A stretch of 39,997 nucleotides of DNA from Candidatus Terrybacteria bacterium RIFCSPHIGHO2_01_FULL_48_17 (GTDB lineage Bacteria > Patescibacteriota > Minisyncoccia > Terrybacterales > 2-01-FULL-58-14): NCBI GenBank assembly GCA_001822835.1, contig MHSS01000001.1:37297-77293 (forward strand), written 5' to 3'. This document shows positions 7,716-11,710 of the stretch, piece by piece. Numbering within the stretch: the first letter of the stretch is position 1; each line of letters starts with the position of its first letter. The translations under genes and the position numbers were made by a program. The notes beneath the pieces were generated by a model. The model searched no databases. It was not told where the DNA came from and worked only from the letters and a program-made list of their open reading frames with translations.

Positions 7716-9089
7716 ATGCGGACAAACGTTGACCAACCTGCCAAATCACAACAAATGCAACCCCCGCCATCTGACGTTTCCCCTTGGACGGGACTTGTGG
7801 GCTTAGTAGGATTTGCTCTTGCTTTTTTTGTAGCTTTTGTATTGCAAAAGGGTCTGCATCCGGCCCTCCGATCCATAGAAATGCTAAGCATAACCGGCCT
7901 TTTTATGATCGTTTTCGAACTCATCCGACTTAAAAATTATCCCCTTCTTTTCCAGATCATAAAAGGGCGATTGGACAAAGAAATACACGTATGGTCTGCG
8001 CGCGATATATTAATGCGTCTGTTGGGGGCTCTTATAACATTTACGCCATTTACGATCGGATATGTGGTATTAAAAACAATTATGCCGGATCGGTACGCGC
8101 CCTTTTTGATCGGTATTCTAATAAGTATTCCAATCGTTCTCCTATTTCTTGCGGTGCATTTTCTGCTTACCCCCTCCCAAAAGGACGTTTGGTGGCAGCT
8201 TGGCATGGTGGTGCTGCGAAAACAAAAAATAAAAGATATTCACGAAGGGGCAGAACATTGGCGACAATGGATGCTAAAAGCGTTTTTTATTCCTTTCATG
8301 TTTGGAATTGTGTACGGTAATCTTACTATTCTTGGCCGTATCATCGATAACTTCTCCTTTGAATTGCCCCGGGTTTTTTTGGTTCTGCATATGTTCATAT
8401 TTGCTGTCGATACGGTATTCGGTACGGCAGGTTATGTGTTGTCATTTCGTATAACCGATTCTCACATCAGGTCAACGCAAAAAAGCATCTTCGGTTGGGC
8501 TGTGTGCCTTATCTGCTATCCCCCGCTCCTATTTGTATTATTTTCCATTGCCGATTATCAAGATTCTATTACGTGGGATAAATGGCTTGGTACTACAGGA
8601 CCTTTGGCATGGGGATGGGCGCTTGCTATCCTCCTTTTTGAAACTCTGTATGTATGGGCAACGGTTATTTTTGGCCTACGATTTTCGAATCTTACACATC
8701 GTGGCATTGTTACCAATGGCCCCTATCGTTATTTCAAGCATCCCGCCTATTTTGCAAAGAATATCGCCTGGTGGCTGGTATATATCCCATTCATACCCAT
8801 TCTTTCGCTCGGTGTGGCGCTGGTTAATAGCGCGCAGCTTCTTTTTGTAAATTATATCTATTATCTTCGGGCAAGGACCGAAGAACAACACCTCATGGAA
8901 GACCCACGCTACCGCGAATATGCGGCGTGGATTGACGAACACGGAGTGCTTCCGTCGCTTCGATATACCGTTGCGAAAAGCTTTGCCGGAAGATTTGCGG
9001 CGCGACTAAGCAAACCGATTCTGATCCGCATATCGAATGCACACTATAAATATGTCCCGTGGAAGCATATTTTTAAAAAACTTTTGTAA
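7716..9089 (+). CDS. Polytopic membrane protein with C-terminal isoprenylcysteine carboxyl methyltransferase (ICMT)-like domain
   Basis: Many hydrophobic segments; RFSNLTHRGIVTNGPYRYFKHPAY and RARTEEQHL motifs. Confidence 0.78.
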   Translation: MRTNVDQPAKSQQMQPPPSDVSPWTGLVGLVGFALAFFVAFVLQKGLHPALRSIEMLSITGLFMIVFELIRLKNYPLLFQIIKGRLDKEIHVWSARDILMRLLGALITFTPFTIGYVVLKTIMPDRYAPFLIGILISIPIVLLFLAVHFLLTPSQKDVWWQLGMVVLRKQKIKDIHEGAEHWRQWMLKAFFIPFMFGIVYGNLTILGRIIDNFSFELPRVFLVLHMFIFAVDTVFGTAGYVLSFRITDSHIRSTQKSIFGWAVCLICYPPLLFVLFSIADYQDSITWDKWLGTTGPLAWGWALAILLFETLYVWATVIFGLRFSNLTHRGIVTNGPYRYFKHPAYFAKNIAWWLVYIPFIPILSLGVALVNSAQLLFVNYIYYLRARTEEQHLMEDPRYREYAAWIDEHGVLPSLRYTVAKSFAGRFAARLSKPILIRISNAHYKYVPWKHIFKKLL

Positions 9090-9097
9090 TCACACTC

Positions 9098-9127
9098 AAA
9101 AACCCAGGCATTGCGCCTGGGTTTTTT
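9098..9127. terminator. Bidirectional terminator
   Basis: AAAAACCCAGGC/GCCTGGGTTTTT between convergent genes. Confidence 0.8.
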
Positions 9128-9161
9128 ATTTCTTTCATAGAAAGCGGTACCCTGCGCAAAA

Positions 9162-9235
9162 TGGGCGCGCCCTGACTCGAACAGGGGACCTTCTCGGTGT
9201 AAACGAGACGCTCTAACCAACTGAGCTACGCGCCC
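9162..9235 (-). tRNA. tRNA-Val(TAC)
   Basis: GGGCGCG/CGCGCCC acceptor, anticodon arm TCTCG-TT TAC AC-CGAGA, TTCGAGT T-loop. Confidence 0.95.
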
Positions 9236-9321
9236 GCTTTATACGGGATTGCGATTTGTTCCCAATCGCTTCTATCTTGCCTGCCCGCCGAAACGTTGCG
9301 CAGATGGGGACAAATCGGGAA

Positions 9322-9385
9322 TAAACGAGACGCTGTCAACTGCCTTGTCCGCCGTAGTTTTAACGAAGGAGGAAGCTAGCCGCTC
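9322..9385 (-). pseudogene. Degenerate 5' half of a tRNA-Val-like gene interrupted by a 31-nt REP-like insert
   Basis: 13-nt exact match to 9200-9212 (TAAACGAGACGCT); CAACTG and AGCTA match the D arm either side of insert 9343-9373. Confidence 0.6.
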
Positions 9386-9389
9386 CCTT

Positions 9390-9851
9390 CTAGTTGTCAC
9401 CCGCCTTTTCTTCTTCTCCTTGATTTTTTTGACTATCCGTCTCTTGGGTAGATTTCGCCACCTCGATCTCCTGTGATTCTTTTTGAACTTGTCCTATCTC
9501 AGGAGGCACAAGCTCTCCGCGAAGGGTGGATCGCTTACCCACTCGTTTTCGTATAAAATTGAGCTTTGCGCGACGCGTTTTTGCACGACGGATAATTTCA
9601 ATATTAACCACCGTTGGGGCCCACAAAGGAAAAATTCGCTCAACACCAACCCCAAAAGCAATTTTCCGTACCGTAATAGTAGCGCCGGGCTCGGCGCCGT
9701 GCTTGCGCGCAATAACCAATCCTTCAAATATTGCGTTGCGTTCTTTCCCCCCCTCTTTCACTTTTTCGGTTACGCGTACCGTATCGCCCGGGCGAACATC
9801 GGGCCGGGGAGGTCTGGCAACCGATTGTTGAAATGTCGTGAGTAAATCCAT
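9390..9851 (-). CDS. rplS: 50S ribosomal protein L19
   Basis: PDVRPGDTVRV, FEGLVIA, TITVRKIAFGVGVERIFP, RRAKL motifs. Confidence 0.96.
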   Translation of the reverse strand: MDLLTTFQQSVARPPRPDVRPGDTVRVTEKVKEGGKERNAIFEGLVIARKHGAEPGATITVRKIAFGVGVERIFPLWAPTVVNIEIIRRAKTRRAKLNFIRKRVGKRSTLRGELVPPEIGQVQKESQEIEVAKSTQETDSQKNQGEEEKAGDN

Positions 9852-9888
9852 AAATACTACGAAATACGAGTTATTACGAATATACGAA

Positions 9889-10638
9889 TCAATGATATTC
9901 TATCGATGGCTCGTTGTCTATATTACGCGTGGGAGCGAGATTTTCAAGTGTTTCAAGAAAATCCTCCGGTGGGTCTGCTTCGATGCTCAAACGGAGGCCG
10001 TTTGGCGTTAAAAAATGGAGAGTGCTTGCATGCAGCATCTGCCGGTGTGTTCGTTTCGAGGCGACCTTTCCGCCATACAATTGGTCCCCCAATACCGGAT
10101 GCCCCAACGCCGCAAGATGCACCCGTAATTGGTGCATTCTACCCGATTTTGGATGAAGTTCCAATAGCGTGGCATCTTGCAATCGCTTGCGCACTAAAAA
10201 TTCGGTTTCTGCCTCACGTATTGTCTTGTGCTCTGTACCCTGTACCCTGTACCCTGTGCGAAGTGCCTGCTGTTTTAGCTTGCCTCTTACAATAGGATAG
10301 CGGATTGTTCCTCTAGGTGCTTTAACGTTGCCTTGGACTATAGCAAGATAGGTTTTTTCAACTTTGCGTTGTTTAAATTGATCCTTAAGAAATAAAAATG
10401 CCTTTTGATTTTTTGCAACAGCCAAAACGCCCGAGGTATCCTTGTCCAACCGATGTACAATCCCTGGCCTTTCAGAGCCTTCGCCCACCCCTTGAATTTC
10501 TGGCCGCTGGATAAGCAATATATCGGCAAGCGTTTCCTCGTCTTTCACGCCCGCTCCTTGATGCACCACAAGCCCCGCAGGCTTATTGAGCGCTATTACG
10601 TCATCGTCTTCGTAGAGAATATCGAGGGATCCCTTCAT
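9889..10638 (-). CDS. RluA/RluD-family pseudouridine synthase
   Basis: NKPAGLVVH, catalytic HRLDKDTSG, GRMHQLRVH, GDQLYG; start ATG 10638. Confidence 0.93.
   Translation of the reverse strand: MKGSLDILYEDDDVIALNKPAGLVVHQGAGVKDEETLADILLIQRPEIQGVGEGSERPGIVHRLDKDTSGVLAVAKNQKAFLFLKDQFKQRKVEKTYLAIVQGNVKAPRGTIRYPIVRGKLKQQALRTGYRVQGTEHKTIREAETEFLVRKRLQDATLLELHPKSGRMHQLRVHLAALGHPVLGDQLYGGKVASKRTHRQMLHASTLHFLTPNGLRLSIEADPPEDFLETLENLAPTRNIDNEPSIEYH
10233..10253. repeat. Tandem heptamer (CTGTACC)x3 inside the RluA-family CDS
   Basis: Three perfect units (21 nt) read directly. Confidence 0.85.
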
Positions 10639-10682
10639 AATATACTTGAATTTTATTCTGGTAACATTAGTATATAACAAGA

Positions 10683-10756
10683 GGGCGGTTAGCTCAGCTG
10701 GTTAGAGCGTCACATTGACATTGTGAAGGTCAGTGGTTCAAGTCCACTACCGCCCA
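10683..10756 (+). tRNA. tRNA-Val(GAC)
   Basis: GGGCGGT/ACCGCCC acceptor; TCACA-TT GAC AT-TGTGA anticodon arm. Confidence 0.95.
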
Positions 10757-10778
10757 TTGGGCACGTAGCCCAACGGTA

Positions 10779-10798
10779 CCTGCCTACCGGCAGGCAGG
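10779..10798. repeat. 20-nt near-perfect palindrome (REP-like) in the D-loop of the interrupted tRNA
   Basis: CCTGCCTACCGGCAGGCAGG. Confidence 0.8.
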
Positions 10799-10849
10799 GA
10801 GCGCGAAGTCCCGAAAACGCCCGCGAGCTATAATATATTAATATATTAG

Positions 10850-10923
10850 GGATGCGTAGCTCAATTGGTTAGAGCGCCAAGCTTATACCTTGGTGGTTCC
10901 AGGTTCGAGTCCTGGCGCATCCA
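10850..10923 (+). tRNA. tRNA-Ile(TAT), intact, nested inside the interrupted tRNA
   Basis: GGATGCG/CGCATCC acceptor; CCAAG-CT TAT AC-CTTGG anticodon arm; CCAGG-TTCGAGT-CCTGG T arm. Confidence 0.93.
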
Positions 10924-11122
10924 TAAGCGAGTGGTTATGTTTTCGTGATCCCGTTGTCTCGCGGATATAAGATCAAAACACCGACCGGGCAATACGGGAA
11001 CTCGAAAACCTAAGCTCCGCAACTGCATGGGCTCAGCAAGATTTTCGGGACTTATACCTTTGTGGTTCTAGGTTCGAATCCTAGCGTGCCCACCAAAATT
11101 TGGTTATAGTAATAAAAGTTGT

Positions 11123-11194
11123 GCTGGGGTAGCTCAGTGGTAGAGCATCTGCCTGAAGAGCAGAGGGTCGTCGGTTCGATCCCGACCCCCAGCA
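11123..11194 (+). tRNA. tRNA-Phe(GAA)
   Basis: GCTGGGG/CCCCAGC acceptor; TCTGC-CT GAA GA-GCAGA. Confidence 0.95.
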
Positions 11195-11201
11195 TACGTT
11201 G

Positions 11202-11224
11202 AAAGCCGCCGTTTGGCGGCTTTT
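11202..11224. terminator. Bidirectional terminator
   Basis: AAAGCCGCC/GGCGGCTTTT. Confidence 0.8.
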
Positions 11225-11275
11225 ATGTTTTCAGGTGTTATCCGCAACTTAATTGTTCTTACGCAATCTGCCTTA

Positions 11276-11710
11276 TTAATAGTATGCGATTTTTTTCATC
11301 GAAGCAAAGGGCTCGGGTTGCGGATTCACAATAGGGCGGACGCGCCGGATATATGCGACCGCCTCATCCCAATCCATGCCTAAGCGGGTATGCAGCCACG
11401 TGGCAATAAAAGCCGTGCTGCGGCTAATGCCCATGGCACAATGCACGAGACATCGCTTCTTGAGTAAAACCATAAGGTCAAGAAACTGCAGTGCTGCCAC
11501 AAACGCAATCTCTGCGTCTTCGGGAATTGGCTTGGAATCGACAATCGGGAGTTTTGTGTACACAATTCCGGCCTTTTTATACTTCTTGCGCGGCACACGT
11601 ACCCAATCGGCGACACAGATTACCGCCTCTATATGCGCCTCTTTTAACGCTTTGATATTGCGGGCATCATGCCGATCCCCAATTGCAATCCATTCGGTAA
11701 CGAATTCCAC
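11276..11710 (-). CDS. Dual-specificity protein phosphatase family protein
   Basis: Catalytic HCAMGISRS (HCxxGxxRS), upstream LPIVD and downstream RPIVNP; GTG start with SD AAGGAG. Confidence 0.9.
   Translation of the reverse strand: MEFVTEWIAIGDRHDARNIKALKEAHIEAVICVADWVRVPRKKYKKAGIVYTKLPIVDSKPIPEDAEIAFVAALQFLDLMVLLKKRCLVHCAMGISRSTAFIATWLHTRLGMDWDEAVAYIRRVRPIVNPQPEPFASMKKIAYY

Follow-up and report, generated by a model that had tools for sequence, protein, structure and literature searches.

tRNA genes are usually regarded as the most static and vertically inherited parts of a genome, and ultra-small bacteria hold a single gene per anticodon. Group I introns occur in the anticodon loops of bacterial tRNA genes, mobile introns of rRNA genes in the Candidate Phyla Radiation (CPR) were reportedly described by Tsurumaki et al. 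in 2022, and the phage T4 protein SegB is a free-standing GIY-YIG homing endonuclease of a tRNA gene cluster. Small, non-autonomous and non-coding hairpin elements are represented by REP/REPIN sequences, which are moved by RAYT, and by palindrome-associated derivatives of IS200/IS605, for which we know of neither gene cargo nor a specialisation on tRNA genes. In tRNA-dependent lysogeny, as outlined by Guerrero-Bustamante and Hatfull (2024, PMC10865867), actinobacteriophages integrate into an essential host tRNA gene without rebuilding it. Archaea possess transposing tRNA introns and split tRNAs (Fujishima et al. 2009, 2010, via PMC10714607, a meeting report whose pertinent section covers archaeal split tRNAs and CPR rRNA introns only). 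Our search of the literature on tRNA-gene interruptions and inserts in CPR/Patescibacteria found no description of tRNA-in-tRNA cassettes in bacteria. Here, we analyse the tRNA-Val(UAC) locus in a stretch of 39,997 nucleotides (the window) from the genome of Candidatus Terrybacteria bacterium RIFCSPHIGHO2_01_FULL_48_17, in which an intact tRNA gene follows the remains of another of the same identity. This locus belongs, in a decayed state, to a recurrent and apparently undescribed class of self-complementing insertions into tRNA genes, in which, on the reading that we favour with moderate confidence, a tRNA gene is broken by a non-coding cassette inserted at the DNA level, which also brings the replacement copy.

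The locus resembles tRNA-dependent lysogeny in joining a disrupted host tRNA gene to an element-borne tRNA of the same isotype. However, whereas the system presented in PMC10865867 involves whole temperate phages with a tyrosine integrase and an attP/attB core of roughly 10 bp, the insert here is a non-coding cassette of 140-240 nucleotides (nt) with inverted hairpin termini and no direct-repeat core. Its host is a Patescibacterium, its tRNA occupies the apex of a palindrome and it has no linked recombinase. As in REP/REPIN sequences and IS200/IS605 derivatives, the size lies between tens and about 200 nt, hairpins are present and no duplication of the target is seen, while a short, loose motif that may be the target lies by the left end; moreover, hairpins lie near both ends, hairpin 1 being kept by compensatory change, as in IS200/IS605-derived or REP-like elements. 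Unlike REP/REPIN sequences, the cassettes bear tRNA cargo and occupy tRNA genes, and the Y1 open reading frame (ORF) of this genome is accompanied by different hairpins. Short inverted termini are shared with classical DDE-type miniature inverted-repeat transposable elements but, unlike in these, there is no target-site duplication, since exact removal of the insert restores a 7-nt anticodon loop. With the archaeal tRNA introns covered in PMC10714607 the cassettes share the presence of related inserts at several positions of different tRNA genes and the restoration of the tRNA by exact removal, whereas the archaeal introns are described there as spliced at a bulge-helix-bulge by EndA, leaving a working interrupted gene, and here EndA was not found, an intact copy is present and the relics decay. 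Like group I introns, the cassette is inserted in a bacterial tRNA anticodon loop; unlike them, it has a tRNA inside and no ribozyme core. As with T4 SegB, two small GIY-YIG ORFs lie beside tRNA genes, but none is found at the relic loci of Val, Ile, Gly, Ser or Gln.

The Val locus was read on the minus strand, starting at the stop codon of rplS (TAG, 9392-9390); coordinates are window positions, and a slash marks an insertion junction (Table 1). The first-pass annotation of the window had proposed a tRNA-Val-like 5' half with an insert in its D arm, broken off at a hairpin in the anticodon loop and followed by an intact tRNA-Val(UAC), and the letters that it quoted are all present on this strand where it placed them. 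This 5' relic, or ghost, reads GGGAGCG(+GC) TA GCT (31 nt) CAGTTG-ACAGCG TCTCG TTTA when aligned to tRNA positions 1-36, and an exact 13-mer (AGCGTCTCGTTTA) is common to it and the intact gene. In a gap-tolerant local alignment, the intact tRNA matched its own 250-nt upstream flank with a score of 30, which was reached by 0/3000 random genome windows (background maximum 24-29), while the antisense control scored 15. The ghost was also compared with a tRNA-Val profile hidden Markov model built from 11 Val genes of relatives, none of them from this genome. In its native form it scored 3.4 bits (E=32 local, E=64 genome-wide), which is not significant, and the general tRNA model of Rfam did not report it. 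Once the 31-nt insert was removed by script, as the annotation had proposed for a check, the score rose to 14.1 bits (E 0.014 for a genome-sized search), and none of 5000 control windows treated likewise, each at least 700 nt from any tRNA, exceeded 3.6 bits. Therefore, the ghost becomes significant only when the insert is allowed for. Its differences from the intact gene are mainly those of decay, namely a single substitution in the acceptor, an insertion of 2 nt, a deletion in the D loop and the 31-nt insert. On these sequence comparisons, the ghost is, beyond chance, the decayed 5' half of a tRNA-Val gene.

The break point of the ghost coincides with a conserved double-hairpin element (TTCCCGATTTG...CAAATCGCAATCCCG), whose left module (9321-9244, minus strand) reads TTCCCGATTTGTCC...GGGAACAAATCGCAATCCCG and whose hairpin 1 has an enlarged interior in the window copy. 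The hairpin noticed at the anticodon break is confirmed, and it is a member of a conserved family. A search of 41 genomes (40 relatives and this genome itself) yielded a complete copy in a genome of the same class and a different family (G016), which aligns base for base with the Val locus of the window. Its 5' relic is GCGCGCT TA GCTC AGTT(hairpin)GTCCGAGC G ATCCG TTTA/, followed by the insert TTCCCGATTTGTCCCCGCTTAGCGGGGTAACAAATCGCAATCCCGC TTAAAGT (tRNA-Val(TAC)) CTTTGT GCGGGA/ and the 3' relic CAC CGGGT ... AGCGCGC A. The order within the cassette is TTCCCG, hairpin 1, AATCCCGC, TTAAAGT, tRNA-Val(TAC), CTTTGT and GCGGGA, and cutting TTCCCG...CGGGA out of the locus restores the anticodon loop TTTACAC. 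The stems of this relic are perfect (acceptor 7/7, anticodon 5/5), and of 1128 further deletions tried in the D region of its joined halves, 282 give an ARAGORN call of tRNA-Val(tac). Moreover, relic and nested gene differ by paired changes in two stems (acceptor and anticodon), so that the two stem from different lineages.

The same homology explains the right side of the locus in the window. The annotation had offered CAGGGT-ACCGCTT (9142-9154), just beyond the intact tRNA, as a partner of the ghost acceptor, and this stretch does pair formally with GAGCGGC at 6/7 positions. However, the downstream flank aligned to the tRNA scores 14-16, which is background, and so yields no 3' half. By homology with the G016 locus, GCAGGGT is the mutated right terminus of the element (family consensus GCGGGA/), followed by ACCG as all that remains of the 3' relic; thus, since the supposed acceptor partner is the decayed terminus, the 3' half of the ghost is essentially deleted. 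A matching 3' half with a complementary acceptor strand is therefore absent in the window, apart from ACCG, and present in the G016 copy (7/7). The uninterrupted state is seen in a genome of the same family as the window (G001), where only 26 nt separate rplS from an uninterrupted tRNA-Val(TAC) downstream, with neither ghost nor element; the window ghost occupies the position of this uninterrupted gene. G001 has at another locus (L011:2211-2275) a 3' relic of its own after tRNA-Ile(UAU) (...ACGGGA/CGAATCCTGACAGGCCCACCA), which is broken in the T loop and not in the anticodon arm.

The annotation had also counted the D-arm palindrome as a part of a grammar repeated between loci. The 31-nt insert is indeed present, and it matches other genomes at 85-93%. 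All ten copies fetched are a hairpin repeat of about TCCGCC-TTCGTTAAAACTAC-GGCGGA-CAAG, and 0/10 lie at a tRNA gene, so that the insert is a second, unrelated dispersed repeat that landed in the dead half, and its place in the grammar falls away. A related, shorter hairpin occupies the equivalent place in the G016 relic.

The first-pass annotation had suggested one repeated process from this locus and a tRNA-Ile locus of the same window, a proposal upheld by the Ile locus, by at least 9 of the 45 tRNA genes of this genome, by the complete G016 copy and by dozens of other Patescibacteria. The Ile relic has a perfect acceptor (GGGCACG/CGTGCCC, here the two strands), an encoded CCA and a 20-nt hairpin in the D loop, and its 242-nt insert (10809-11050, TCCCGAAAA...TTTTCGGGA) holds an intact tRNA-Ile(UAU) at 10850-10923. 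After removal by script of the insert and a D-region stretch, ARAGORN returned tRNA-Ile(tat) in 361 of 820 second deletions. The codon AUA is read by this tRNA-Ile(UAU) gene, and the genome has only two tRNAs with a CAU anticodon; judging from the set of tRNA genes, the lysidine route may be absent.

The genome (865 kb in 16 contigs, 98.68% complete) has 45 ARAGORN tRNA genes, and the intact ones cover 19 of the 20 amino acids, Asn being missing. At C13:55855-56169, a tRNA gene is interrupted in the anticodon loop by about 240 nt and is called by ARAGORN as Thr(tgt) with an intron; by reading, its exons (CTGT/TAA) form tRNA-Asn(GUU), the sole amino acid without an intact gene, and the insert looks like a group I intron. 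With this intron-bearing gene and the 19 amino acids covered by intact genes, the relics appear dispensable. When each of the 45 tRNAs was aligned to its own 600-nt flanks and the cognate score was compared with the best non-cognate one, a cognate relic stood above the best non-cognate at nine, namely Gln(CUG), Ile(UAU), Trp, Gly(CCC) on both sides, Ser(UGA), Arg(GCG), Gly(UCC), Val(UAC) and Ser(GGA), and Tyr and Ala(UGC) were added by reading. Thus, the survey of tRNA loci for split halves of the same isotype that the annotation had recommended finds the layout again in this genome and its relatives. Complete nests are those of Ile(UAU), Gly(CCC), which is two-layered, and Ser(GGA). The Tyr relic is interrupted in its T loop by an element without cargo, and the intact gene begins 4 nt further downstream; at Trp the order is relic, GIY-YIG ORF and intact gene; and the 3' relic of Arg(GCG) is a 19-nt exact repeat of the end of the gene. 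The 13-mer AATCGCAATCCCG occurs four times, always less than 400 nt from a tRNA, and only 4.4% of the genome lies so close. Palindromes of the form TCCCG...CGGGA were also tried as a general repeat of the genome and rejected, with 17 against 12 in a scrambled control. A second element family (TCCCGACG...TCGGGATCCCGA...CGTCGGGA, 60-62 nt) lies in each copy directly after TAG/ (Table 1). Downstream of both tRNA-Gln genes lie stretches with an abundance of GTCCCGAGC-like units (C8:11860-11970 and C12:4520-4590).

Among the genomes of the class, the 14-mer AAATCGCAATCCCG with at most one mismatch is found in 182 of 401, although many of the one-mismatch matches are chance matches in genes; the reversed 14-mer was far rarer, as judged by reading the table without a count. 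A gapped pattern gave at least 119 loci in the species collection, of which 80 were fetched, nearly all labelled Patescibacteria, and 71 of these 80 have the full left terminus. A tRNA starts within 40 nt of the element in 45 of the 71 (39 on the same strand and 6 on the opposite one), a tRNA is present within 300 nt in another 14, and the remaining 12 have none; in the loci listed, the tRNA most often starts after a gap of 9 nt from the conserved AATCCC. Under a strict rule for the right end, the 71 copies comprise 30 nested in sense, 2 nested in antisense, 7 without cargo, 4 with other cargo and 28 in which no right end was found. Removal of the insert by script, with three left-end and two right-end junction offsets tried, restored an ARAGORN tRNA across the junction in 19 of the 80 loci. 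Only the cut TTCCCG...GGGA returned the anticodon of the nested gene itself in a standard call, and this held for anticodon-loop junctions in Val, Ser GGA/UGA/GCU and Gly CCC.

The left flanks are mostly TTA/ (Val), TTG/ (Ser, Thr and, in antisense, Cys), TTC/ (Gly) and ATG/, a loose motif without target duplication; therefore, the break appears to follow a short motif (TTN/) and not a fixed position of the tRNA. The element is found in both orientations, with strand-dependent junction offsets. In an alignment of 70 distinct copies, in which columns set by the search pattern cannot vary, double changes keep the pairing at 8 of the 15 predicted pairs of hairpin 1. Variants of its base stem include CGATTTG/CAAATCG, CGTTTCG/CGAAACG and CTGTTTG/CAAACAG (slash between the strands), and the arms of hairpin 2 were recognised by reading. 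Nested Val genes are 76-100% alike across genomes (mean 85%), and at several other loci the anticodon stem of the relic is identical to that of the nested gene.

Where no tRNA accompanies the element, it is found in 23S-5S spacers (L059, L064) and beside or inside Rfam group I intron matches in 16S and 23S genes (L067, L053, L093), and a cargo-less copy lies in a dead tRNA-Tyr beside an intact tRNA-Tyr; copies without tRNA cargo thus sit in dispensable DNA. At L061 and L091, a protein gene has its stop codon 12 nt before the element, and its final 10 codons are repeated beyond the element; at L061 all six differences between the repeated ends are synonymous or stop-to-stop. This suggests the same logic of replacing what is broken for a coding 3' end. 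The locus L105 is a chimera with a Val relic as its left flank (AGCGTCTCGTTTA/) and a nested gene and right flank of Ser(GGA), preceded upstream by a run of N, and is likely the product of recombination between two copies of the element.

Table 1. Features of the Val locus and related features of the same genome (window positions, or contig:positions where a contig (C) is named)
Feature	Position	Strand	Basis and remarks
rplS (ribosomal protein L19)	9393..9851	-	Pfam Ribosomal_L19, E 6.8e-33; directly upstream of the ghost
5' relic (ghost) of tRNA-Val	9322..9387	-	Reading, alignment, profile; tRNA positions 1-35, ends TTTA/ inside the anticodon
Secondary insertion, 31 nt, in the D arm of the relic	9343..9373	-	Belongs to a dispersed hairpin repeat with a consensus of about TCCGCCTTCGTTAAAACTACGGCGGACAAG
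Left module of the insertion element	9244..9321	-	TTCCCG terminus, hairpin 1 CGATTTGT...ACAAATCG, then CGCAATCCCG
Leader, 8 nt, TATAAAGC	9236..9243	-	Between the TCCCG arm of the element and the nested tRNA
Intact nested tRNA-Val(UAC), working gene	9162..9235	-	ARAGORN; Rfam tRNA 70.6 bits
Trailer and decayed right terminus TTTTGCGCAGGGT	9149..9161	-	G016 alignment; right ends GCGGGA/ in other copies
ACCG, last trace of the 3' relic	9145..9148	-	Expected CAC CGAGA...; remaining 3' half missing
Palindromic hairpin resembling an intrinsic terminator	9098..9126		Terminator scan and reading; closes the rplS / tRNA-Val unit
Complete tRNA-Ile(UAU) nest	10759..11095	+	Relic 10759-10808 and 11051-11095; ARAGORN, reading
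Second-family copies (G000, this genome)	C6:391-452, C13:98266-98341, C15:35255-35314		Two in the D stem (U8-A9-G10) of tRNA relics
RAYT/IS200-like Y1 transposase ORF, 236 aa (G000)	C9:31407-32117		Flanked by TATGGTAGTCCGAC-type hairpins
Small GIY-YIG ORFs, both of the genome (G000)	C5:29590-29790, C8:11988-12215		Beside tRNA genes

On the reading that we favour, a small hairpin-bounded cassette would have entered a resident tRNA-Val(UAC) gene downstream of rplS between A35 and C36 (TTTA/CAC). Its parts would be the terminus TTCCCG, the conserved hairpin 1 and a second palindrome with arms that start with TCCCG and end with CGGGA, at the apex of which a complete tRNA-Val(UAC) gene would be carried. 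In a genome with one gene per anticodon such an insertion would be tolerated because the cargo replaces the destroyed gene, and the survival of the cassette only in cognate tRNA genes would be the result of selection. Promoter-like sites on this strand within 9000-10000 were found by a scan only upstream of rplS; therefore, tRNA-Val would be transcribed together with rplS, from its promoter and through the relic, and would be released by the normal enzymes of tRNA end processing. The old halves are then free to decay, and the decay at the Val locus comprises the 2-nt insertion, the D-loop deletion, the 31-nt repeat, the enlarged hairpin 1, the mutated right terminus and the loss of most of the 3' half. 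Exact boundaries free of duplication, inverted termini, two hairpins, cargo at the apex and the same anticodon in relic and cargo are observed directly, as are the decay of relics and the empty orthologous site in G001. As a guess, the mover might be a hairpin-recognising enzyme acting on single-strand DNA (HUH-type) or another trans-acting enzyme with a short T-rich target. It is also conceivable, although we consider it doubtful, that the cassette is a natural drive for RNA-gene alleles, that is, a single-strand DNA hairpin element whose right end is set by a guide TCCCGN pairing with a downstream N'CGGGA, which captures a whole tRNA gene at the apex of the palindrome and replaces the same gene from within in other Patescibacteria.

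Several observations weigh against the self-complementing cassette. The reading does not account for the place of the tRNA at the apex of the second palindrome, and no mobilising enzyme was found. The sole Y1 (HUH) transposase-like ORF was considered as the cognate transposase and rejected, since its own flanking hairpins differ from the element; one further TATGGTAGTCCGAC-type hairpin is translated in frame inside this ORF. A Y1 ORF is present in 4/5 element-rich genomes and 1/5 without a motif match, a tiny sample in which three of the rich genomes belong to one genus. The genome encodes the RNA ligase RtcB, so that rejoining of the halves at the RNA level is chemically possible, and some relics (G016) have retained perfect stems even at family-level distances, possibly a hint of selection on them. 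In the window, relic and nested Val gene have nearly the same sequence (13-mer identity, acceptor 6/7), a state that local duplication would fit as well, and the copy of hairpin 1 in the window has no unusual stability compared with shuffled sequences (z -1.01; 38 of 200 shuffles fold as well). Finally, an empty site within the species was sought by aligning contigs of four DNA runs to window positions 8900-11300, and none of them bridges the Val or the Ile insert as an empty site would. The organism's own public contigs from these runs end at tRNAs, most of the joints being to tRNAs of other organisms, and a joint from 9260 to 9306 with 12 other letters between is the shorter hairpin 1 version of other organisms. 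The two GIY-YIG ORFs were likewise considered in connection with the relics and set aside: one lies between the decayed and the intact tRNA-Trp, the only locus that fits, and the other lies 134 nt after tRNA-Gln(UUG), where there is no relic.

Among the alternatives, the one that survives best, although we regard it as unlikely, is that a tRNA gene was first duplicated locally and generic hairpin repeats then hit the redundant copy, no tRNA being carried as cargo. Tandem layouts do exist, such as the Tyr relic with its cargo-less element and the intact gene 4 nt on, as well as Trp and, in other genomes, Ala(CGC), and the common 13-mer, the 6/7 acceptor bases of the window pair and the identical anticodon stems of several other loci would also agree with duplication. 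However, duplication followed by insertion cannot give the nested order seen at Ile, Gly(CCC), Ser(GGA) and the G016 Val, and both the paired changes between the two stems of the G016 relic and its nested gene and the nearly constant spacing from element to tRNA, most commonly 9 nt, argue against it.

Less probable still is that a phage or island integrated into the anticodon loop by an integrase, brought its own tRNA and was later almost fully deleted. A logic of disruption and complementation is documented for actinobacteriophages in the account of PMC10865867; the genome has one tyrosine recombinase, and the 19-nt exact repeat of the Arg(GCG) 3' relic is att-like. Nevertheless, the inserts measure 140-240 nt without an ORF, their ends are inverted (TTCCCG...CGGGA) without a direct-repeat core, exact removal leaves no duplicate, the same two hairpins bound 71 copies, and the sole recombinase is unlinked and lies on contig C4.

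An interruption resolved at the RNA level appears very improbable. Here the outer halves would be functional, the insert would be spliced out, and the halves, held by the TCCCG/CGGGA helix and the acceptor, would be rejoined by, for example, RtcB. Exact removal does restore a canonical anticodon loop, the termini form a closing helix on either strand, the stems of some relics are flawless and RtcB is kept in an 865-kb genome. However, a search for EndA (PF01974) gave no match in the 98.68% complete genome and was positive in four archaea as a control, and the Intron_gpI covariance model found no match in window positions 8800-11500 at E up to 10. By reading, the anticodon stem and the TCCCG/CGGGA helix would be separated at the junctions by a 5x3 internal loop and not by 3-nt bulges 4 bp apart. 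Moreover, the window Val relic has no 3' half, 61 of the 80 loci are not restorable, the break tracks the TTN/ motif and not the tRNA position, the elements occur in both orientations with strand-dependent junction offsets, and among the 45 loci where element and tRNA are no more than 40 nt apart, none was read as having the split gene as its only copy. A chance resemblance of the upstream stretch to half a tRNA, to which the failure of Rfam and of the native profile search might point, is refuted by controls of which 0/3000 and 0/5000 reach the observed scores and by the base-for-base homology with the G016 locus.

The value of the Val locus is mainly that of a dated, decaying example, which places the steps of the process in order when combined with the complete G016 copy and the empty G001 site. 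If the reading as a self-complementing cassette is true, a parasite of about 200 bases safely breaks a tRNA gene since it supplies the spare part, a minimal form of the disrupt-and-complement strategy that has so far been shown only for whole phages. This would account for the numerous half-tRNAs that confuse the annotation of CPR genomes, would offer a route for the horizontal replacement of tRNA alleles and would point to an enzyme that recognises hairpin DNA with short T-rich targets. Should the more doubtful drive also prove true, the tRNA repertoires of reduced genomes would turn over horizontally, gene by gene.

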